From Candidatus Egerieisoma sp. (GTDB taxonomy: Bacteria > Bacillota > Clostridia > UBA1212 > UBA1255), in NCBI GenBank assembly GCA_045125595.1, contig JBGVNN010000010.1:43879-107878 (forward strand): DNA of 64,000 nucleotides. The letters run 5' to 3'. The position numbers were made by a program, and so were the translations under genes. The notes under the pieces are model-generated. The model saw nothing but the letters and a program-made list of their open reading frames with translations. It was not told the DNA's origin and ran no database searches. Below, one piece after another: positions 52,945 to 64,000 of the stretch; positions within the stretch are counted from its first letter, which is position 1; each line of letters begins with the position of its first letter.

Positions 52945-53158
52945 GATTACACCCTCCTTATCAAAAAGAAAAACATACCAAAAAGTAAAATTCTTAAATT
53001 GTCGTTATCTTGGTTTTATATTATCATTTCAATTGTGAAGACTCAAGGCATAACATGCAAACATTTCATGAACAATAATCTGCATTTTTCCGGCTTATTG
53101 CTGTTATCTGTGAAGGATAGGAATCAATAAATTTTTCTTATGTTAGAGCATTCTTCAT

Positions 53159-53683
53159 TTAATCATAGAAAAATTCATATTCAGGAAGTTTCTTCCATTC
53201 ATTTGTTCCTGTTAATATTTCTTCTATGCCCCTGCATACATCAAGAAATTTACGTGCTTTTTCATCGCTACTAAAGTACAGGGTATTTTCGTATACTGCT
53301 ACTTTCTTATCTATCCCTTCTGCCTTTACTGACAAAATCAAAGTTTCATACGGTGTCACCCAAATATTACGGTTTGGATCATAGACATCGGGATAGGACT
53401 CAATATCCAAATCTTCAATTAATTCCCATATTGCAGCGTACTGTTCTTCAGAAAGTTGAAGAAATGTAATATATCTATTAGGTTCGGTAGCATCTTTTGT
53501 TTTTATCAATTTTCCTGTTTTACTGTCGTACGAACTAATGCCGTAAGTATTCCATACTAAAGAGAAAGAGTAATTCGGTTCATTTTTACTTTGATTGATG
53601 ACAAATGAAACAATACTGAAAACAGCAACAAAAATGAGCGCTACCGTACAAATTATATACAAAAATCGAACATTATTTTTCAT
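53159..53683 (-). CDS. hypothetical membrane-anchored protein (start MKNNVRFLY)
   Basis: N-terminal TM, overlaps the upstream gene stop. Confidence 0.5.
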   Translation of the reverse strand: MKNNVRFLYIICTVALIFVAVFSIVSFVINQSKNEPNYSFSLVWNTYGISSYDSKTGKLIKTKDATEPNRYITFLQLSEEQYAAIWELIEDLDIESYPDVYDPNRNIWVTPYETLILSVKAEGIDKKVAVYENTLYFSSDEKARKFLDVCRGIEEILTGTNEWKKLPEYEFFYD

Positions 53684-54155
53684 TGAATATGAGCTCCTTA
53701 AGCAGGTCAATTTGTGCCTGCGTCAGTTCTGCTTGACCTTTGTCACAACGAGCATATCCCGCTGAAAAATTTATACCATAAACAATACCTAACTCGGTTT
53801 TAACATCGTATTCAGCCATACACTTGCACATTTTGTTTTTATCATATTGCAAATTTTCAAGAATATCTATCATGGTCGCAGCCGAGCTTTCTGATATAAC
53901 CATGTAAGTATTTTCATTTTTGAAATAAATGGTTGTCTGTACGTCGCTATCCGGCACTTTCTCTGTCGGTTGTTGAATAGTTGTCTGCACATCGCTATCT
54001 AACAATTCCCCGGTCGGTTGCTGACATACATCAGCAACGATCGAGGCACTATTTTCTTTATCACTCGGCATTTCCCCAAAAACCAAAACAGAGGCAGCAA
54101 CGAAAACAGCAGCAATACCTATAACGCATACCAATAAAATCCATGTTTTTTTCAT
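53673..54155 (-). CDS. hypothetical secreted/membrane-anchored protein with internal DSDVQTTI duplication
   Basis: Signal-anchor MKKTWILLVCVIGIAAVFVAA; internal repeat is also visible at DNA level. Confidence 0.5.
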   Translation of the reverse strand: MKKTWILLVCVIGIAAVFVAASVLVFGEMPSDKENSASIVADVCQQPTGELLDSDVQTTIQQPTEKVPDSDVQTTIYFKNENTYMVISESSAATMIDILENLQYDKNKMCKCMAEYDVKTELGIVYGINFSAGYARCDKGQAELTQAQIDLLKELIFNEK

Positions 54156-54177
54156 AAAACCACACCCTTTCAGTATA

Positions 54178-54747
54178 TCAGTTCAAAATCACCAAAAGCT
54201 CCTCTATTTGTTTTTTAGAAAGACGTATCCGAGTATCATTCTCCGTATTGCATAATATATTTTTTCTTAATACAAATTGAATTTCAGAACCATCTGCAGT
54301 ATTAAAACAAATTCTGTACTCTTTTTTTATGTCTATATCTAAAATTACCAAGCTGTTGCCATCATTCTTTGTCCCTGATGACTCTGAGCCATAGCTATCG
54401 CCTTTTATTGCTCCACCCTCTTGCGTATTGTTGCCCCCAAGAGAAGTTCCTGCATCTGAAGTTTTATACAAATTTAAAATCGCAGAATAGATTTCATTCA
54501 CTTTGGCGGAATCGGTAACAGTTTCGGTCCGAGCACCATTGTCATCAACACCTGTTATATCAACAGATACAAAACTATCCGTTTCCGTAGGGAACACTGC
54601 CGGCAGAATCGTCACCGACAATATGGTTAGAATAAAACAAAAAGTAATACAAACAACCAAGATGTGATTGCGCTTTGCTTTACGTTCTTTTATTCTTTCC
54701 TCACTGCGACGAAAAATTTCCGCTTTTCTTTCTTCAAAATTTTTCAT
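54178..54747 (-). CDS. putative membrane anti-sigma factor (non-ZAS): short cytoplasmic N-terminus, one TM, extracytoplasmic domain
   Basis: ATGA overlap with the upstream ECF sigma gene; topology of about 30 aa charged N-terminus plus TM; no HxxxCxxC motif. Confidence 0.5.
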   Translation of the reverse strand: MKNFEERKAEIFRRSEERIKERKAKRNHILVVCITFCFILTILSVTILPAVFPTETDSFVSVDITGVDDNGARTETVTDSAKVNEIYSAILNLYKTSDAGTSLGGNNTQEGGAIKGDSYGSESSGTKNDGNSLVILDIDIKKEYRICFNTADGSEIQFVLRKNILCNTENDTRIRLSKKQIEELLVILN

Positions 54748-55337
54748 AATAACAGCTCACCATCCTCTCCAAGAATGATGCGAAGTTCCTTTTTAGCACG
54801 ATATAAAAGATTGTCTATCTGTTTGTGATTTTTCTTCATAACCCTCGCTGCCTCTTTATAAGACAAATTTTCAAAATAAACTAAGTGTATGACAATACGC
54901 ATATCATCCGAAAGTAAGCAAAGGGCATTGTTTATTACTCGTTTCCGCTCGTCTGTAAGAACAGTTTCTTCAAGTGTTTCCTCCTCCGGAAACGCATTGT
55001 CGGCTTCTTCGAGTTCTACTAAATCAATAACCTTACGGTGTTTTATGTAGTTTAAAGCGCGACTCCGTCCGAGCATAAACAGATAAGTTTTCAATGTAAC
55101 CTTGAAATTATACCGATGCTTATTAACTATCAAATCTGAAAAAGCATCAATAGCAATATCTTCGGCTGCGTGTATATCATGCACATAACGATTAATAAAG
55201 AACACAAGATTATCAAACAATTCTTTCATTATATCGTCAAAGGCACTCTCGTCACCATCAAGGAAACGGCGGTAGCTACTTGCACCGTTGTCCATATGGT
55301 TTCCTCCTAATTTCCGGAGCATACTCGTCTCCTTCAC
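54744..55337 (-). CDS. ECF-subfamily RNA polymerase sigma-70 factor
   Basis: Region 2 (...FDNLVFFINRYVHDIHAAEDIAIDAFSDLI...) and region 4 (LSYKEAARVMKKNHKQIDNLLYRAKKELR). Confidence 0.8.
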   Translation of the reverse strand: MKETSMLRKLGGNHMDNGASSYRRFLDGDESAFDDIMKELFDNLVFFINRYVHDIHAAEDIAIDAFSDLIVNKHRYNFKVTLKTYLFMLGRSRALNYIKHRKVIDLVELEEADNAFPEEETLEETVLTDERKRVINNALCLLSDDMRIVIHLVYFENLSYKEAARVMKKNHKQIDNLLYRAKKELRIILGEDGELLL

Positions 55338-55382: not shown

Positions 55383-56252
55383 CTATTTCTGTCTTGCCAA
55401 AGCAAAAACGGCGCCGAGAATCAAAACCATACCTATTACAAGTGGAGCAGTCAAGTTTTCTCCCAAAAACGCAACACTAAAAACAGTAGCAGAAAGCGGC
55501 TCTATAATTCCGAGCGCAGTTGCCGTTCCTGCAGGGACATCTTTAAGTCCCATTGTATAGAAAACATATGGTAAAACGCAAGTAAACACACCTATGCCAA
55601 CAATAAGCGGAATAATTGAAAGCGGCTGTTTGCTTGTTATTGTTACGATTTCAATAGGATTTGATACTGCAAGACCTATAATACTCATAATAATAAAATT
55701 ATAGCTGGTTACAGTAAGAGTATCCACCTTGTGCATTGTGAGAATTTTCGTAAATATGTTATAAGCACTGTAAGAAATGCCCGCCGCAATTCCGAAAAGG
55801 ATTCCTGCAAGGCTGAACTTCATTCCACCAACTATGCCGGAAACGAGAGCGCAACCAAGTATCATTAAAAACACAGAAATACTTTTTACTGTATTCAACT
55901 TTTCGCCAAGAAACATTACTGAATATATGAGGACAAAAACGGGTGCGGTATACATCAATATAACTGCAGTTGAAACAGAAGACGCAGCCATCGAGGCATA
56001 GTATGTATATGCTGTTAAGAACAGACCAACACCGCTACCGATAATAAAGAAAATTTCCTTTTTAGGCACTTTTAACAACTTGGGATTTTTAAAAAGTATA
56101 AATGGCACAATCAAAACCATTGATACAAACCCACGCATTGTTGTCATTTGAACAGGCTTAAATCCAAAGGGGGTAAGCCAATAAGAGAAAAGACCACTTG
56201 TTCCCCAAAGAACACCAGCGAGAGCAATATAAAAAAAAGCACTTTTTTTCAA
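55383..56252 (-). CDS. EamA/DMT-family transporter (TTG start)
   Basis: 289 aa, 10 TM, two EamA repeats; RBS AGAGGTG then TTG. Confidence 0.7.
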   Translation of the reverse strand: MKKSAFFYIALAGVLWGTSGLFSYWLTPFGFKPVQMTTMRGFVSMVLIVPFILFKNPKLLKVPKKEIFFIIGSGVGLFLTAYTYYASMAASSVSTAVILMYTAPVFVLIYSVMFLGEKLNTVKSISVFLMILGCALVSGIVGGMKFSLAGILFGIAAGISYSAYNIFTKILTMHKVDTLTVTSYNFIIMSIIGLAVSNPIEIVTITSKQPLSIIPLIVGIGVFTCVLPYVFYTMGLKDVPAGTATALGIIEPLSATVFSVAFLGENLTAPLVIGMVLILGAVFALARQK

Positions 56253-56397: not shown

Positions 56398-57846
56398 TTA
56401 AGTATTTACTGAATACTCTTTTTTAAACCCATGTGCACCGAATATTTGCCACTGGCCAACACCAAGACGACTAATAATAGCTTTACGCTCAATCGCACAG
56501 AGCTTATGATCGGTGTCAACAGAGGTCATTAAAATCGGTGCATATTGATTATATTCTGCTTGTGCAGGTGTAAGTCCATGTATATTGATATACACATCTC
56601 CTGTCAGAGCAATATGGTGTGTGTAGTCAATCAATATGATTTCCCCCGGCAAGTGTCCGCCTTTGCCTTCATACACCTCAAAATGCAACTCTCCGAAATC
56701 AAAAAAACCGATTTGTGTAAGTGGCTCTGTTAATTCTTCAATACTATTTCCTACAACTTTAATCTTATCAGGATTTACAGGTTTATATGAGGTAAGAATT
56801 TTACAGATATTAATATACGGCTTGTGCAAAGGATTTTTTTCTCTGTATCCATCATTTCCGAGAAATTCATCCTTTAAACAAAGAGCAGTTCTGGGACTGG
56901 CTATAATCTCATCGAATATTGGAAGCAAACCGCAATGGTCAACATCTGCGTGTGTCACAAGGATGGTTTTCTTTATCTCATCAAAATTCGGGAGAATTCT
57001 CCGAATAACATCAAGCATTTCACTGTTAAAACAAGCATATCCGCTATCCACAAACATTATTTGCTCATCGCTTTTAATGATAATGGTATTACTGCCGCAA
57101 GGTGGTTCTATAAGAATAATTTCTGTACAGTCTGTTATTTTGTGGTTACTTACCCTTGGCATGAAGGCTTTACCTTTAGATGCACCCAGTAATTCCGCAA
57201 ACTTACTTATACTGTCAAAAGTTCTGTATGGAGATAACCCTTGTTCATCAAGTGTTTGCATAGCAAGATTAACATGAACCAAAAGTTCACGACTAACCTC
57301 GTCAGAAAGCCCCATTGTTTGAGACAATCCCATAACATATGTGTTATAGAAAATACTATTGTCGTAAACCTTTTCTGAACTGTTGTAATTTATTACGCGA
57401 ACCTTACAAAACGTTTCTGCTTCTGCAAGGAATTCTGAAATTTTACCTGCATCTTCTACATACAACCCCATTTTAAAGTATTGATAATTCGTACCGTTTT
57501 CTTGAGAGCTGATATATGAAATATTAAAATTAAAATCGCTGATTAAAGACAATATATTAGTAACACTTCCCGGAACATCTTCAAGGCAAAACTCAATCAA
57601 CACCACGCTCGTTTTGCTTGTATTATTTTGCAGATATCCGATTTTTTCAAGCTCGCTATCAGCTTTGTCTAATTGTTCTTTTGTGCCTTCTGCATCTATA
57701 AACAGCGTATGAGAGTCAACCGCCTTATTATAACTTACACGAGTAATATTAATTCCCAAGGCAGAAAAACATCTGCTCGCTTTAAGGAATGCACCTATAT
57801 CATCAGGCATTGATGTCACATATGTTTTTTTCATCTTTACCTCCAA
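56398..57846 (-). CDS. ACT-ACT-metallo-beta-lactamase-fold fusion protein
   Basis: Two N-terminal ACT-like ligand-binding modules followed by an MBL domain with THADVDHCG (HxHxDH), downstream His/Asp ligands; co-oriented with DAHP synthase, 30-nt gap. Confidence 0.65.
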   Translation of the reverse strand: MEVKMKKTYVTSMPDDIGAFLKASRCFSALGINITRVSYNKAVDSHTLFIDAEGTKEQLDKADSELEKIGYLQNNTSKTSVVLIEFCLEDVPGSVTNILSLISDFNFNISYISSQENGTNYQYFKMGLYVEDAGKISEFLAEAETFCKVRVINYNSSEKVYDNSIFYNTYVMGLSQTMGLSDEVSRELLVHVNLAMQTLDEQGLSPYRTFDSISKFAELLGASKGKAFMPRVSNHKITDCTEIILIEPPCGSNTIIIKSDEQIMFVDSGYACFNSEMLDVIRRILPNFDEIKKTILVTHADVDHCGLLPIFDEIIASPRTALCLKDEFLGNDGYREKNPLHKPYINICKILTSYKPVNPDKIKVVGNSIEELTEPLTQIGFFDFGELHFEVYEGKGGHLPGEIILIDYTHHIALTGDVYINIHGLTPAQAEYNQYAPILMTSVDTDHKLCAIERKAIISRLGVGQWQIFGAHGFKKEYSVNT

Positions 57847-57876
57847 AGTATTAACAAAATATTATCTCACTTTCAA

Positions 57877-58905
57877 TCAAAGTTTATCAGCTATATCAAG
57901 AATAAGTCTTTCGGTCTTTTCCCAACCAAGACAAGGATCTGTTATTGATTTGCCAAAAATATGCTCGCCCATGCTTTGAGCACCATCCTCAATGTAACTT
58001 TCAATCATCAATCCCTTAACAAGACGTTTGATAACTGAATTTTCATTGCGGCTGTGAACAATATCCTTTGCAATACGAATTTGTTCAAGATACTGTTTAC
58101 CTGAATTGTTATGATTTGTATCTACTATTACAGACGGATTTACCAGATTCGATTGCTCATAAAGCTCTTCTACTCTCAAAAGATCCTCATAATGATAATT
58201 TGAAGTACTTCTTCCCGCATAATCAATATAGCCGCGAAGTATGGCATGTGTACATGGATTGCCCTCGCTCGTAACCTCCCAGCCTCTGTAAATAAAAGTG
58301 TGACTTGACTGCGCTGCAACTATAGAGTTCATCATAACGCTAAGGTCTCCACTCGTAGGATTCTTCATTCCCACAGGTACGCTGATTCCGCTTGCTGTGA
58401 GTCGGTGTTGTTGATTTTCTACGGAACGTGCGCCAATCGCAACATACGCAAGCAAGTCGGAAAGGTAGTGGTAATTTTCCGGATAGAGCATTTCGTCGGC
58501 ACACGAGAAACCGTAATCTCGCAATGCCGCCAAATGCAGCTCTCGAATCGAAACAAGACCTTTATACATGTCCGGTTTAGCCTCTGGATCAGGTTGATGC
58601 AACATACCTTTGTATCCTTGCCCGGTAGTTCTCGGTTTATTTGTGTAAACCCTCGGAATAATAACTATTTTATCTGATACTTGTTCTTCAATTCTGCGAA
58701 GCCTTGAAATATATTCAAGCACCGGTTCACTATGGTCTGCGGAGCATGGTCCGATTATAAGAATAAATTTATCTGAGTGGCCATCAAAAACAGCTTTGAT
58801 ACTCTCGTCACGCTCTGCTTTAATTTTTCTCATTTTTTCTGTCAATGGATATTCTCCCATGACTTCTTCCGGTAACGGAAGTCTCCTATGAAAATTCATT
58901 CTCAT
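57877..58905 (-). CDS. aroG: 3-deoxy-7-phosphoheptulonate (DAHP) synthase class I-alpha; start at MRMNFHRR, ORF-track extension to 59013 runs through the T-box leader
   Basis: GPCS, KPRTT, AIGARSVENQ and SITDPCLGWE motifs match AroG/AroF. Confidence 0.85.
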   Translation of the reverse strand: MRMNFHRRLPLPEEVMGEYPLTEKMRKIKAERDESIKAVFDGHSDKFILIIGPCSADHSEPVLEYISRLRRIEEQVSDKIVIIPRVYTNKPRTTGQGYKGMLHQPDPEAKPDMYKGLVSIRELHLAALRDYGFSCADEMLYPENYHYLSDLLAYVAIGARSVENQQHRLTASGISVPVGMKNPTSGDLSVMMNSIVAAQSSHTFIYRGWEVTSEGNPCTHAILRGYIDYAGRSTSNYHYEDLLRVEELYEQSNLVNPSVIVDTNHNNSGKQYLEQIRIAKDIVHSRNENSVIKRLVKGLMIESYIEDGAQSMGEHIFGKSITDPCLGWEKTERLILDIADKL

Positions 58906-58984
58906 TAAAAAACACCCTTTCTTTTTGTCAGATACAATACTTTCGAATTGTGGAAGGGTAAACAAAAACGCCCTCCGCATTCCG

Positions 58985-59265
58985 ATAAAGAATACAGAGG
59001 ACGAGAAAATCAATAATCCCGTGGTACCACCTCAGTTCGTCGCTACCTCACGATAGTGACCTTTTCAAGTACTAACATACCTTAGTTCTATAACGGGAAC
59101 GCCCGTTGCCTCCTACTAAAGATTTTTATCTTATTCAGTGCACTGCTAGCAGAATGAATTCAGAAGGGCGTCCGCTTTGCCTCGCACCAACCGGCAACTC
59201 TCTCAAGATTCTTCCCAACCTACTGGTTTCTGATCTTCGCATTTAGTGTTACAACATATTTAATT
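58985..59265 (-). promoter_or_regulatory. T-box riboswitch leader, probable Phe (UUC) specifier
   Basis: Minus-strand leader contains AGAGAG box (59198-59204), distal hairpin ttgcc-ggttggtgcga-ggcaa, specifier-loop candidate GAA-UUC-A (about 59155-59162) and the conserved T-box sequence aactGAGGTGGTACCACGGG (59018-59037). Confidence 0.65.
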
Positions 59266-59300
59266 GTCGTTTGTTGTTATAACATAATGGTTTCAAAAAA

Positions 59301-60206
59301 TCAAGACTTTATTTTAATCTCTGTACCTCCCCATTCGACTACGGTGAATCCTTTGCGCTCCGGTGCAGTAAACTCTTGTTGCGGTATTTCTACAAACTCA
59401 TCTGACTTTTGCCAAGCCATAAATACACGGATCAAAGTGTCGGGTGCAGGCGTGACATCGAGCTGTGCCGCATCTGTATATATTTCACCTTGAAAAGAAA
59501 TGATGTTATATGGATTTTGCTCCATGAGAGGCAACCAATAAACAATAAATTCATTGGCTTCGCGGCGCGTAAGTCCGAGTTTATCGAGCGCCGCCTCAAG
59601 AAAGGTTGCGGTGTTCTCTCCTTTTATACAAAAACCTTTGGAGAGATCATACTGTGCAAAAGTTTCTCCTTCCCAATAAAGATAATTATATGTTTTTCCT
59701 TTATTGTCAATTAAAGTGCCGTCCGGGAAAGCCGTAACTTCCCACCCTTTTCCGTATTTGGGGTATGTGCAAGTCAATCTGCCGTCGAGCATGAGACTGA
59801 CGGAAACTTGCGTTTCTTTTTCGGGGTAGAGATAAATAACAGGTTTGTAGTCTTTGAGAGAATCATCCTGTTCACAGTCGCTTGCTTTTTCCCAGCTTAT
59901 TGCTGTTATCTGTGCGGGATAGGACAACATAACATAGCCGCTGTATGTTATTTGTACCACATCACCCACTTTAGCGCCTATTTTTTCTAATTTTGTGATA
60001 TTAAAGGAAATTTTGGCATTGTTTGTTCTTTCGGGTTCACCCTCGATAGGTTCAACCAAAACAGAAGTGTCATTTATTTCTATAACTTTAGCGTAAAATG
60101 TCTGTTCATTATTATCTTTCTTAATAAAGAAAAACAACACAATCAATAATACAGCAAGCAACGCGACAACTATAGTAATAGGTATCCAAATTTTCTTTTT
60201 CAGCAT
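59301..60206 (-). CDS. hypothetical membrane-anchored protein (301 aa)
   Basis: N-terminal TM IPITIVVALLAVLLIVLFFFI, two beta-rich extracytoplasmic domains; a remnant paralog copy lies at 53060-53128. Confidence 0.55.
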   Translation of the reverse strand: MLKKKIWIPITIVVALLAVLLIVLFFFIKKDNNEQTFYAKVIEINDTSVLVEPIEGEPERTNNAKISFNITKLEKIGAKVGDVVQITYSGYVMLSYPAQITAISWEKASDCEQDDSLKDYKPVIYLYPEKETQVSVSLMLDGRLTCTYPKYGKGWEVTAFPDGTLIDNKGKTYNYLYWEGETFAQYDLSKGFCIKGENTATFLEAALDKLGLTRREANEFIVYWLPLMEQNPYNIISFQGEIYTDAAQLDVTPAPDTLIRVFMAWQKSDEFVEIPQQEFTAPERKGFTVVEWGGTEIKIKS

Positions 60207-60295
60207 AAGTAAACCTCCTATTCACCTATTATACAATCAACCGGCTGTATGTTCCTTATGGATATATTTTTCAAGGTCTAATATTGTTCTTTCAA

Positions 60296-60895
60296 TCAAT
60301 ATCCAACAAATTTCTTTAGCACTTCTTCTCTGTTATACTCATAAACCAAAAAGTGTTTTTCTTTTTTAGCCAGTTCCCTATTTTCGGTAGAATCTGCATC
60401 GAATAAAACAATGGCATTGTCACAAATTTTATATCCTGCAAGTTCATTTGCTTCGGCAATTTCCGTTTGCAAATAATCCTCAAGTGACATTATAACTCTT
60501 TTTTCCGTACCATCGTCACCTTCCTTATCACACGAATACACCCATTTTTCACTTTCGGTATCATATTCAAGAGGAAAAGCTTCCGGAATTATAAGTATAT
60601 TATCAAAAACAAACCAGCCGCATTCCAACGAATCGTTAGTAGGATTAAAAATATATTTTATCGGCAGATTGTTTTTAGCAATTTCGTTATATAAATCAAA
60701 ATATATACCGCTGCCTGCAAAAAGTTTATACTTTTTATGTTCGGTTTTATAAAAATAAGAACGCTTATATTTAATATAATCAAACGGCAACATAAAAACA
60801 AAGCATATTCCAAGAATCAGCAAAAGAAACACACATAAGAGTGTTAAGAAAAATTTCCCGATTTTGCTTAATATTTTTTTCATGTGTTTCATCAC
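60296..60895 (-). CDS. hypothetical membrane-anchored protein (199 aa)
   Basis: N-terminal TM; no motif. Confidence 0.45.
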   Translation of the reverse strand: MMKHMKKILSKIGKFFLTLLCVFLLLILGICFVFMLPFDYIKYKRSYFYKTEHKKYKLFAGSGIYFDLYNEIAKNNLPIKYIFNPTNDSLECGWFVFDNILIIPEAFPLEYDTESEKWVYSCDKEGDDGTEKRVIMSLEDYLQTEIAEANELAGYKICDNAIVLFDADSTENRELAKKEKHFLVYEYNREEVLKKFVGY

Positions 60896-61008
60896 CTTGA
60901 AATTAATTTTTTAAAAATTCAAAAACTGATTTTTTGTTAATAAAAACTATTGTCGCTAATACAACTATGGTTATCAATAATATCAAACCAAAAACATATA
61001 AATAACAT

Positions 61009-61941
61009 CTATTTAAGTACGTCATCAAATAGTTCTCGAACCCGTTCCCAATCAACACCGTTTTTCGCACGCCAAAATCTTACAGGGTATCCATAATCAT
61101 TTCTATGTTCATCAGGTTCTCTCATATCTTTAGTTCGAATAAAATATTTCGTCACTCCGCGACATTCGTCTGAATGCAAGATATCTAAATATCCTAAAAT
61201 GTCTAAATATGCCTTATACTCTCTTGATTTGAACGCAAGAAGTTTGCTTTTTTGCAAAATTTCCTTATAAGCCCCTATCTTTTTTTCACTCTGCAATTGC
61301 TCTGTAAGCATCAACGAATCTACAAAAAGCTGATAATCTTCTTTTGTTGCTATTACCTTCGGCATCTTTATAAATTCACGTAATAAAAAAGAAGAAGTTG
61401 TCAGATTTTGCCCCCAAGGATAACCGCCTTCATAGATTCGGCAATATTGCATATAGTTTATCCACATAAAACTCATTTTAGTTTCAACAGATGCAGCACA
61501 GTAATCACAAAAATCACAGTATGGCGATGTATGTAAATCATCGGGGCGTAAATAGTCTTCACTATGTTCAGGAATATTCTTTATGTGTAAAAAAGCAGGC
61601 AAAGCGGTTCTGTAAGCAGGGATTCCCCTTGAGACTCCGTAAATAAATGCGTGAACAACATCTTTGTAAGATACATTTTCAACACGTTGTCTTGCGATTT
61701 TGTTTGCCTCTGTATGTTCAAAAACTTCTTCTCCTAAAAACATGGTTCCTTCCGCAACCGCGGGCAAATATTTTCCAACCGAGTTCGGCCAAAAATTTTT
61801 TCCAAAATCATTAGAATCACATTGAAATTCCCTAAGCAATTTCAATGCAGAGCCATGATCGCAAGCAGGTATATGGTCCTTATAAAATTGTATTACTTCA
61901 TCATCAAATTGTTTGTTAATCATCTCACTGTAATCTGACAT
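61009..61941 (-). CDS. hypothetical cytoplasmic protein, Cys/His-rich (CDHG, CDFCDYC)
   Basis: 310 aa ORF, tightly spaced after upstream gene. Confidence 0.5.
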   Translation of the reverse strand: MSDYSEMINKQFDDEVIQFYKDHIPACDHGSALKLLREFQCDSNDFGKNFWPNSVGKYLPAVAEGTMFLGEEVFEHTEANKIARQRVENVSYKDVVHAFIYGVSRGIPAYRTALPAFLHIKNIPEHSEDYLRPDDLHTSPYCDFCDYCAASVETKMSFMWINYMQYCRIYEGGYPWGQNLTTSSFLLREFIKMPKVIATKEDYQLFVDSLMLTEQLQSEKKIGAYKEILQKSKLLAFKSREYKAYLDILGYLDILHSDECRGVTKYFIRTKDMREPDEHRNDYGYPVRFWRAKNGVDWERVRELFDDVLK

Positions 61942-61945
61942 AATC

Positions 61946-62305
61946 TTACCACCTTGAATTAACCTTTTCCTTCAATGTACGAATAAAATTTTCCACGTTA
62001 TCCGCACCATCACTCGTCAAAGCAGTTGAAAAATCTTTGATATCATTAACGAGTAAATGATATTTCTTGTCGGCATTTAAGCGAATATGAAAAGAGCGTT
62101 TAAACAATCCCCTTTTGATAGATAATTTTGTTATATCTTTAAGCCGAATTTCCGTAATGTAGGCACTACTCGCAGTATATAGAATGCCGTCATTTGTTAG
62201 ATAAAAATAGAGATTTTGAAAACGACTTGAAATCAAAAGTTTTTTAAAACTATCTCTCCAACCCAATGTCATCACCACTTTAATTACTCTTCTTTGCTTT
62301 ATCAA
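61946..62305 (-). CDS. hypothetical small protein (119 aa), possibly PH-like fold
   Basis: ORF overlapping the upstream membrane protein gene by 26 nt. Confidence 0.4.
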   Translation of the reverse strand: MIKQRRVIKVVMTLGWRDSFKKLLISSRFQNLYFYLTNDGILYTASSAYITEIRLKDITKLSIKRGLFKRSFHIRLNADKKYHLLVNDIKDFSTALTSDGADNVENFIRTLKEKVNSRW

Positions 62306-62684
62306 GCGTTGCTATAATCAACCCTTCACAAGCACCAAGTGTCGGAGATAATCCATTCGGAAAGTCTATTATGAACCCCACTGTCATAACAATCGTACCA
62401 ATTGTTCCTACGATTAAGAAAAAATAAAAGAAAAAGCTCATTACTTTAGAAGGAGCATTAATACTCACTATTTTATACATCAATCTAACAAATCCGTATA
62501 TGACAAAGGGTAAAATCAATGACAAAATAAGAATCTTCACCTTTTCTTCTCCGTTGCCGAAAATCAAAGTTAATGTCCAAAATACAAGCAAAATAGCAGT
62601 GCAAATAATTAAAACAATATTTTTCTTTTGAATCAATTTATTGAGCATGTACGATTCCCCCATTAAATAATCGACTTCAACCAA
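62280..62684 (-). CDS. small integral membrane protein (134 aa, 3-4 TM)
   Basis: Overlaps the NSS transporter gene end by 22 nt and the downstream gene start. Confidence 0.5.
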   Translation of the reverse strand: MVEVDYLMGESYMLNKLIQKKNIVLIICTAILLVFWTLTLIFGNGEEKVKILILSLILPFVIYGFVRLMYKIVSINAPSKVMSFFFYFFLIVGTIGTIVMTVGFIIDFPNGLSPTLGACEGLIIATLDKAKKSN

Positions 62685-64000
62685 CCCATTATTGTAAAGT
62701 TATCCGAAAATTCAAAATTAAGTATACCAATGATAAACACAAAAACAATTACCGCAGGCAAAACAAACTTCAAATAATATCGTGTCCATCTTTTTAATTT
62801 CAAGCCTTTACCGGCGTTGGCTTCGTTCAAAAAGTTATCAAAGCCCCAGCCGTATTTACTAACGCAAAACAGCACATAACACAATGCGCCAATCGGAAGC
62901 ATGATGTTGCTTACCAAGAAATCTTCCAAATCCAATATAGAGGAACCACTTGTAAAGGGAGTAATTTCCGACAAAACATTAAAACCAAGTGCACACGGCA
63001 GCGACAAAATAAAAATCGACACACCACAGATTATACAAGTCTTAGCCCTTTTCCAAGATGTAATTTCGCTGACACAGGCAAGTATGTTTTGAAAAACAGC
63101 AATAATCGTAGACATCGCCGCAAAAAACATAAACAAGAAGAAAAGGCTTCCCCACCATCTGCCACCATTCATATTGTTGAAAACACTTGCCATAGCACCA
63201 AACAGAAGTTCAGGACCTTTTGTAGGTTCTACATTGAATGTAAAACACGCCGGAAAAATTATCAAACCTGACATAATCGCCACAAAAGTATCAAGCACAA
63301 GCACATTAATTGATTCTCCCGCAAGAGAACGTTCTTTACCTATGTAGCTTCCAAATATTGCCATAGAGCCAATACCAAGGCTCAATGTAAAGAACGCCTG
63401 ATTCATTGCTGCAACAATAACACTACCATTAATTTTGCCAAAATCAGGTTTTAAGTAAAATGTTAATCCTTCTTTTGCTCCGGAAAGTGTAAAACTGTTA
63501 ACAGCCATAACTATCATAAGAAAAACCAACGCAATCATCATATATTTCGTTACTTTTTCAACACCATTTTGAAGTCCGAAAGAAAGAATCAAAAAGCCAA
63601 GCAAAACAATAATTGCAACAAAGCCCACACCAATTAAAGGACTGGAAAGCATATCTCCAAATAAGTTTTTAGATGCAGTTTCAGTTATACCGGTCATATT
63701 ACCCATCAAAAAGTTGATAAAATAATACAAAACCCAGCCTGACACAGATGTATAAAACATAACAAGCAGGACATTGGCAATCAATGCTCCATATCCGTGC
63801 AGATGCCATTTTTGACCCTTCTTTTCAAGCTTCTGATAAAGCCTAACAGGGCTTGCCTGGCTTGCTCTACCAAGAGAAAACTCCATAATCAATATTGGAA
63901 ATCCCAAAAGCAAGAGAAAAATCAAATAAATTAATACAAAAATACCTCCACCGTTTTCTCCCACCATCCACGGAAATTTCCACACATTTCCGACGCCGAT
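62663..64000 (-). CDS. sodium-dependent transporter, NSS (SNF) family, 5'-truncated by the window edge
   Basis: ...GNVWKFPWMVGENGGGIFVLIYLIFLLLLGFPILIMEFSLGRAS... matches the NSS TM1 signature; reading frame stays open to position 64000. Confidence 0.8.
   Translation of the reverse strand: MGVGNVWKFPWMVGENGGGIFVLIYLIFLLLLGFPILIMEFSLGRASQASPVRLYQKLEKKGQKWHLHGYGALIANVLLVMFYTSVSGWVLYYFINFLMGNMTGITETASKNLFGDMLSSPLIGVGFVAIIVLLGFLILSFGLQNGVEKVTKYMMIALVFLMIVMAVNSFTLSGAKEGLTFYLKPDFGKINGSVIVAAMNQAFFTLSLGIGSMAIFGSYIGKERSLAGESINVLVLDTFVAIMSGLIIFPACFTFNVEPTKGPELLFGAMASVFNNMNGGRWWGSLFFLFMFFAAMSTIIAVFQNILACVSEITSWKRAKTCIICGVSIFILSLPCALGFNVLSEITPFTSGSSILDLEDFLVSNIMLPIGALCYVLFCVSKYGWGFDNFLNEANAGKGLKLKRWTRYYLKFVLPAVIVFVFIIGILNFEFSDNFTIMGWLKSII

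Follow-up and report, generated by a model that had tools for sequence, protein, structure and literature searches.

Layout of the Locus

We analyzed a cluster of six genes at positions 59301..64000 of a 64,000-nucleotide (nt) stretch of Candidatus Egerieisoma sp. DNA (contig JBGVNN010000010.1; this whole stretch is called the window below). The first-pass annotation had described the cluster as a compact operon headed by a transporter of the neurotransmitter:sodium symporter (NSS) family. The open reading frame (ORF) listing gave six co-oriented ORFs, all on the minus strand, and a metagenome contig of 5.9 kb with identical sequence (L001), for which genes had been called separately, showed the same genes; the two sources agreed, and the co-oriented set of six is real. 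In order, the sizes called in L001 were 468 amino acids (aa) for the NSS transporter, 122 aa for a membrane protein, 110 aa for a pleckstrin homology (PH)-like protein, 310 aa for a Cys-rich protein, and 195 and 301 aa for two membrane-anchored proteins (Table 1). The NSS gene is partial in the window, which holds residues 24–468 of 468, with the N-terminus lying past the window end; it is full length in L001. Scans of the six proteins against Pfam, NCBIfam, PADLOC, and PHROGs returned the NSS match and weak bPH_3 and DUF3221 matches, and nothing else.

The spacing of the genes depends on the start codons chosen. Overlaps of 22 and 26 nt between the first three genes had been reported, and these arise only with the longest ORFs, which open at TTG starts 62684 and 62305. 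With ATG starts that follow a ribosome-binding site, the spacers from the NSS gene to the 301-aa gene were 14, 7, 4, 125, and 89 nt, the second of which (between the 122-aa and PH-like genes) shrinks from 7 to 1 nt if GTG 62278 is taken as the PH-like start. ATG 62648 is most likely the start of the 122-aa gene, because it is preceded by GGGGGAA, because the upstream TTG is a CTG in the relative L143, and because all gene calls gave 122 aa. For the PH-like gene, ATG 62272 is the most likely start: in the alignment, MSWKDDFKK at the beginning of the homologues falls opposite MTLGWRDSFKK of the window copy. The 195-aa gene could also start at ATG 60892, which would make the protein 198 aa long, the size called in the relative L142.

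Zero terminator-like sites were found in the minus-strand intergenic gaps among the six genes. Because the genes are close and co-oriented, with no terminator between them, it is plausible that they share one transcript. Downstream, the cluster is bounded by a T-box leader. It starts 54 nt past the last gene (301 aa) and opens a separate unit with a 3-deoxy-D-arabino-heptulosonate 7-phosphate (DAHP) synthase gene; its specifier, taken from the alignment as GAA-UUC-A, points to Phe, and a terminator-like hairpin with a T-run was found at 59003..58969. A 40-codon hydrophobic ORF at 60903..61025 on the minus strand, overlapping the 3′ end of the Cys-rich gene, is probably not a gene, because it was seen solely in the identical contigs L001–L004. 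It was missing from the 70%-identical locus L005.

Table 1. Features of the six-gene cluster and its surroundings, in window coordinates
Feature	Coordinates	Strand	Basis
NSS (SLC6/SNF) sodium:amino-acid symporter, MhsT-like	62663..64000	-	Pfam SNF, NCBIfam Na_transp
122-aa membrane protein, three hydrophobic segments	62280..62648	-	Hydropathy profile; ATG after GGGGGAA
8-bp direct repeat GGTGATGA, left copy, holding the PH-like start codon	62269..62276	-	Sequence
PH-like protein, 108 aa	61946..62272	-	Pfam bPH_3, weak
Cys/His-rich cytoplasmic protein, 310 aa, all-alpha family, putative zinc site	61009..61941	-	H76, H126, C142, C145 invariant
Insertion/deletion difference, 1,372 bp, PH-like and Cys-rich genes	60897..62268	.	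Present in the window, not in L142
8-bp direct repeat GGTGATGA, right copy, holding an in-frame ATG of the 195/198-aa gene	60889..60896	-	Sequence
195-aa protein, N-terminal membrane anchor	60296..60883	-	No family match
301-aa membrane-anchored protein, shortened DUF3221-family member	59301..60206	-	Family hidden Markov model, Pfam
T-box leader, Phe-specific by reading	58994..59246	-	Rfam RF00230, 104.1 bits vs. gathering score 93
DAHP synthase gene	57877..about 58965	-	Behind the T-box leader
ECF-type sigma operon	53159..55337	-	Comparison with L051
Degenerate paralogue remnant of the 301-aa gene	53069..53122	-	In the 215-bp gap after 53159..53710

Neighborhood Conservation and Strain Variation

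The six genes are not conserved as a set. At 80 NSS orthologue loci (56–73% identical), partner genes were present in 0/80, and the genes downstream of NSS varied by locus. When metagenome-assembled genomes were scanned for the Cys-rich gene, 42 loci emerged from Clostridia of the gut and rumen, and these were searched by tblastn with all six proteins over a 10 kb range. The NSS, 122-aa, PH-like, and 301-aa genes occurred in 0/42 of these loci, and a 195-aa homologue was found in one (L005). Cys-rich homologues of 69–75% identity instead adjoined unrelated genes, including HD/DHH phosphohydrolases, PadR, and a GntR-ABC transporter. The proposal of one conserved operon therefore did not survive comparison: the genes part company in related genomes, the very outcome that the first-pass annotation had named as counting against it.

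Comparison with the closest relatives located the variation more precisely. In L142, which shares 98% DNA identity with the window, the gene order was NSS, 122 aa, 198 aa, 301 aa, and DAHP synthase, and blastn placed window segment 63409..62269 directly against 60896..57869. Because L142 fuses 62269 to 60896, the window carries 1,372 extra bp, which hold the PH-like and Cys-rich genes. Each of the two junctions lies in a copy of the 8-bp direct repeat GGTGATGA, and both copies include an ATG start. In four further relatives that are 86% identical (L143–L146), the 122-aa gene was followed directly by the EamA gene (window 55383..56252); everything between these two genes was missing, as was the sigma operon, and only the YcxB-like gene, NSS, and the 122-aa membrane protein were retained. 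The pairing of NSS with the 122-aa gene, with a YcxB-family gene upstream, is thus the only conserved part of the locus, and it is conserved just among close relatives. The four other genes are strain-specific add-ons.

Taken together, we think it likely that the region is a site of strain variation, where functionally unrelated genes are stacked in one orientation and probably co-transcribed, and not a dedicated six-gene system. Its core would pair an MhsT-like Na+/hydrophobic-amino-acid symporter with the fast-evolving 122-aa membrane protein 14 nt further on, and illegitimate recombination may have inserted or removed small accessory genes behind this pair. The PH-like and Cys-rich genes would form a two-gene segment of 1,372 bp flanked by GGTGATGA. 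Since this repeat overlaps the ribosome-binding-site and start-codon region, whichever gene came next would inherit a working start. A second variable block would combine the 195-aa and 301-aa genes with the Phe T-box–DAHP synthase unit.

Several points weigh against this interpretation. The tight spacers of 14, 7, and 4 nt fit a true operon equally well. The 195-aa gene adjoins the Cys-rich gene or its homologue in three contexts (the window, L005, and L047), which hints at some linkage of the two. The NSS/122-aa pairing was judged on relatives of at least 86% identity and on orthologues of 56–73% identity, and its real range may be wider. Lastly, the 1,372-bp difference can be read either as an insertion or as a deletion.

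The surroundings of the cluster also differed between the two closest strains. The window, unlike L142, has a minus-strand gene at 56398..57846 whose 482-aa product contains ACT and metallo-beta-lactamase domains, which adds to the strain variation seen here. Between its EamA and sigma-factor genes, L142 had DUF3267 and HTH_3 genes instead, and the part of the sigma operon at 54148..53682 was missing from it.

The Transporter and Its Small Neighbor

The NSS protein belongs to the SNF family. It matched Pfam SNF (PF00209) at E 6.9e-44 with 150.9 bits against a 27-bit threshold, and NCBIfam Na_transp (NF037979) with 107 bits against 50. Its closest solved relative was 4us3, matched over the full length at E 3.9e-85 and far better than LeuT (about 1e-31); we take 4us3 to be MhsT of Bacillus halodurans, a hydrophobic-amino-acid transporter. 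The NSS gene here differs from MhsT in preceding a 122-aa membrane protein in this lineage, and we know of no counterpart of that protein for MhsT. Compared with L143, the transporter was 93% identical, with a ratio of nonsynonymous to synonymous substitution (dN/dS) of 0.05. No riboswitch and no T-box were found upstream of NSS in L143.

Directly behind NSS, the 122-aa gene was present in each of the six close relatives whose sequence reaches that far (L001 and L142–L146), and it was the sole downstream gene that stayed with the transporter in this group. Its product was 79% identical to that of L143 at the amino-acid level, with a dN/dS of 0.40. It had no Pfam match, and NCBIfam at E ≤ 0.1 gave only two chance-level matches. 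A small hydrophobic ORF was absent downstream of 75 NSS orthologues of 56–62% identity. Upstream of NSS and outside the window, a YcxB-like gene (167 aa; L001 236..739) scored 24.1 bits against a threshold of 23.3. The gene upstream of NSS in L143 (8154..8684, 176 aa) is also YcxB-like. The two YcxB-like proteins (167 vs. 176 aa) could scarcely be aligned despite the 93%-identical transporter beside them.

The first-pass annotation had compared the NSS/122-aa pair with MetP/MetS, and this analogy stood only in part. MetPS of Corynebacterium glutamicum is a two-subunit NSS importer of methionine and alanine, according to Troetschel et al. 2008 as cited in PMC3219685. The likeness lies in an NSS gene adjoining a small membrane-protein gene. 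The differences are that the 122-aa protein is larger, has three hydrophobic segments, and shows no MetS-type family match, and that the pairing was seen in close relatives only and not in the 75 orthologues. A candidate assignment of the 122-aa protein as a MetS-like small subunit was rejected on the missing NCBIfam match and the missing downstream ORFs; NCBIfam presumably holds a MetS-like model. By homology, the MetPS analogy is not supported.

These observations also bear on the explanation that all six genes make up one functional operon, in which NSS and the 122-aa protein would act as a MetP/MetS-like two-subunit importer with the other four genes as accessory or regulatory components. 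The dense co-oriented packing with no intergenic terminators, the adjacency of the first two genes in 6/6 close relatives with sequence there, and some purifying selection on the 122-aa protein (dN/dS of 0.40) speak for such an arrangement. Set against them are the absence of the four downstream genes from close relatives and from all 80 orthologue loci, the lack of NCBIfam matches to the 122-aa protein at E ≤ 0.1 beyond the chance-level pair, the 75 orthologues with no small hydrophobic ORF downstream, and a nearest solved relative (4us3) that was solved as one protein chain. MetS-type peptides are moreover short, and a 122-aa protein with three segments is larger. We consider a single dedicated operon the least probable of the explanations weighed here, and a very improbable one.

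The Cys-Rich Protein and Its Family

The motifs noted earlier in the 310-aa protein, CDHG (C27) and CDFCDYC (C142, C145, and C148), are present. The protein had 34 close homologues, and a search run without a word index extended the family to about 330 representative clusters at 50% identity, whose members are typically 270–280 aa long. An alignment of 91 sequences showed H76, F99, H126, C142, and C145 to be invariant and R111, W290, and G295 to be at least 90% conserved; every full-length fused member checked, along with two Bacillales homologues, retained all of these residues. Family members matched no model in Pfam or NCBIfam, and profile searches against PDB sequences gave nothing for this family or for that of the 301-aa protein. 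On sequence grounds, the Cys-rich protein founds an unannotated and undescribed family.

Structure prediction improved markedly with alignment depth. An earlier AlphaFold run with close homologues only was poor, with a predicted local distance difference test score (pLDDT) of 61, and AlphaFold2 with the 91 diverse sequences produced an all-alpha model with a pLDDT of 96.8 and a predicted template modeling score of 0.93. This model had no fold match in the PDB and no resemblance to a known enzyme fold. Judging from the residue pattern, the two His residues and the C-x2-C pair most likely hold a structural zinc ion.

Fusions and distant relatives offered clues to function. About ten family representatives of 550–750 aa bear a C-terminal Imm26 domain, a single representative is fused to DUF4259, and one of the Imm26-fused genes adjoins two DUF1963 genes. 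A homologue on a Niallia plasmid is flanked by DUF2716 and SMI1/KNR4 genes, within a series of small genes that all point the same way. On a megaplasmid of Paenibacillus cellulositrophicus (L150 372..7443), another is directly upstream of genes for a GTP-binding protein, rpsN, and rpmG. We take these to encode a COG0523-type GTPase together with paralogues of ribosomal proteins that do without zinc, a set that resembles a Zur regulon and is typical of the response to zinc starvation. The family had no match in phage collections and only two plasmid records. The commonest neighbor of the distant clostridial homologues (~33% identical) was a gene of ~460 aa, found at 21 loci, which from its sequence we tentatively take to encode a RumA-type rRNA methyltransferase. 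A further 90 neighbors of clostridial homologues were miscellaneous housekeeping genes with no recurring functional family. A conserved partner for the Cys-rich gene was accordingly sought and rejected, as none appeared beyond the lineage synteny with the ~460-aa gene. In L047 (12947..16930), some 4 kb past a homologue of 75% identity on its downstream side, we observed the start of a gene whose product exceeds 3,100 aa and has no Pfam match on record.

Because some family members are fused to Imm26, a binding or immunity-type role, and not one in transport, is suggested for the Cys-rich protein, and such a role is the most attractive lead for the family. A broader version of this idea takes the genes behind the NSS/122-aa pair as a heterogeneous polyimmunity-like array against the toxins of competitors, with the Cys-rich protein as a new, zinc-stabilized immunity family. 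Polyimmunity loci are marked by co-directional arrays, differences between strains of a species, and fusions of unrelated immunity domains, and Imm26 is listed among their members (Zhang et al. 2012, PMC3482391). The array in the window agrees with this description in being tandem, co-directional, and strain-variable. The recurrent fusion to Imm26 (PF15428) in about ten representative clusters, the two DUF1963 genes beside a fused gene, and the co-oriented run with SMI1/KNR4 around the Niallia homologue add to the resemblance, these neighbors being those of distant homologues. What separates this array from polyimmunity loci is the want of recognized immunity families or toxin neighbors. The library scans gave no Imm, SUKH, or toxin family match for the window proteins, no toxin gene was seen beside any family member examined, and the 90 clostridial neighbors included no recurring immunity family. 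In addition, 21/42 Cys-rich loci keep stable synteny with the ~460-aa gene, the 301-aa protein belongs to an envelope family of sigma operons, and strictly invariant H, H, C, C, R, and W residues at about 20% identity would be unusual for fast-evolving immunity proteins. We regard a polyimmunity-like array as unlikely.

A different function, that of a zinc-dependent enzyme or a zinc-homeostasis protein separate from both immunity and the transporter, was considered as well. The family-wide invariance of H76, H126, C142, C145, R111, and W290, fusions included, and the Paenibacillus homologue upstream of GTP-binding protein, rpsN, and rpmG genes are in keeping with it. Just one such context was found, though, and the predicted structure was unlike any known enzyme fold; 2His-2Cys ligands are typical of structural and not catalytic zinc. 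This function seems to us improbable.

A further proposal is more specific. The Cys-rich protein would be a new family with a fold new to the PDB and a His2-Cys2 zinc site, serving as an immunity or toxin-binding module, and together with the PH-like gene it would form a promoterless mobile cassette that enters by microhomology at the start codon. The immunity-module part fits because the Imm26 fusion recurs and because the presence of the Cys-rich gene is strain-specific. In this full form, we hold the proposal only tentatively and would not expect it to be correct.

The PH-Like Gene

The smaller gene of the 1,372-bp segment encodes a protein that weakly resembles bacterial PH domains (bPH_3, PF14470; YcxB, PF14317), a group that the YcxB-like gene upstream of NSS resembles as well. 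Its own likeness to bPH_3 was below threshold (E 3e-4, 21.6 bits, threshold 23 bits). The 22 homologues found are mostly 134 aa long. Relative to them, the 108-aa window copy lacks an internal block of 27 aa that was kept by 12/12 aligned homologues, with the consensus SFDxxYExVxxKYxDIRFPCYGGRFYWF, and it departs from the known domains in this loss as well as in its score. The copy may be a decaying or altered version. The homologues are solitary genes in unrelated contexts, and several adjoin serine recombinases. In L133 and L134, the PH-like gene comes after large serine recombinases, and a tandem pair of 134-aa paralogues was observed on a single contig (L140 407..1284).

The Membrane-Anchored Proteins and the Sigma Operon

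The last two genes of the cluster had been described, together with the Cys-rich gene, as having no recognizable domains. That holds for the Cys-rich and 195-aa proteins, neither of which had a family match, but not for the 301-aa protein, which has a DUF3221-like N-terminal segment and a widely shared C-terminal domain. The 90% cluster of the 195-aa protein holds 25 members, and homologues of 49–52% identity adjoin Cys-rich homologues, downstream in L005 and upstream in L047.

The 301-aa protein scored 21 bits against DUF3221 (PF11518), under the threshold of 26.4, and a 72%-identical homologue (P0185) scored above it with 27.3 bits. Its family comprises at least 8,000 protein clusters, mostly of 437 aa, that combine the DUF3221 domain with a conserved C-terminal domain. 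The hidden Markov model (HMM) of the family covered its positions 74–159 and 247–436 in the window copy, which lacks positions 1–73 and 160–246. The C-terminal domain, of ~190 aa (residues about 108–301; 59301..59885; KPVIYLYPE...YLYWEG...VEWGGTEI), is 60–85% identical across the at least 8,000 clusters and has no Pfam model and no sequence-level relative in the PDB.

The usual home of the family was seen in L051, where an operon runs in the order extracytoplasmic function (ECF)-type sigma factor, 193 aa, 547 aa, 437 aa (the family member), 132 aa, and 114 aa. The window carries a related operon whose sigma factor is 86% and whose putative anti-sigma protein is 48% identical to those of L051. 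Here, the 547-aa gene is represented by two overlapping ORFs (53673..54155 and 53159..53710), its N-terminal ~250 aa are missing, and there is no 437-aa gene. In the syntenic slot of that gene lies a short remnant, of which 53093..53122 matched 59895..59924 of the 301-aa gene at 28/30 nt by blastn. A tblastn match covered 11/18 aa, with SYPSQITAIS in the remnant and SYPAQITAIS in the 301-aa gene. The family HMM did not detect it on the six-frame translation of the window. The degenerate paralogue fragment reported earlier for the last gene is therefore genuine, if tiny, and its place in the sigma operon shows where the family usually resides.

Gut Clostridia have DUF3221 envelope proteins whose genes lie in ECF-sigma operons. 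Like the 437-aa members of this group, the 301-aa protein has both the DUF3221 segment and the C-terminal domain, but it is shorter by two internal or N-terminal segments, and its gene is unlinked, 4–6 kb from a sigma operon that retains the remnant only. We suggest that the 301-aa gene is a shortened and displaced copy of an envelope gene normal to the ECF-sigma operon, and that the former copy in the sigma operon of this genome decayed into the 30-nt remnant.

Implications

As an operon, the cluster is ordinary, and the Cys-rich family is its one component that deserves follow-up. The lesson of the locus is that tight, co-oriented packing can mimic a functional unit where there is in truth a strain-variable stack behind a conserved transporter. 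The two-gene insertion or deletion at an 8-bp repeat over the ribosome-binding site and start codon would represent a simple route for slotting promoterless genes into a transcript. The C-terminal half of the 301-aa protein is a widespread, highly conserved, and unannotated extracytoplasmic domain, which in gut Clostridia is linked to an ECF-sigma operon. With its confident model, its putative His2-Cys2 site, and its Imm26-fused subfamily, the Cys-rich family is a target for structural studies and for studies of conflict systems.

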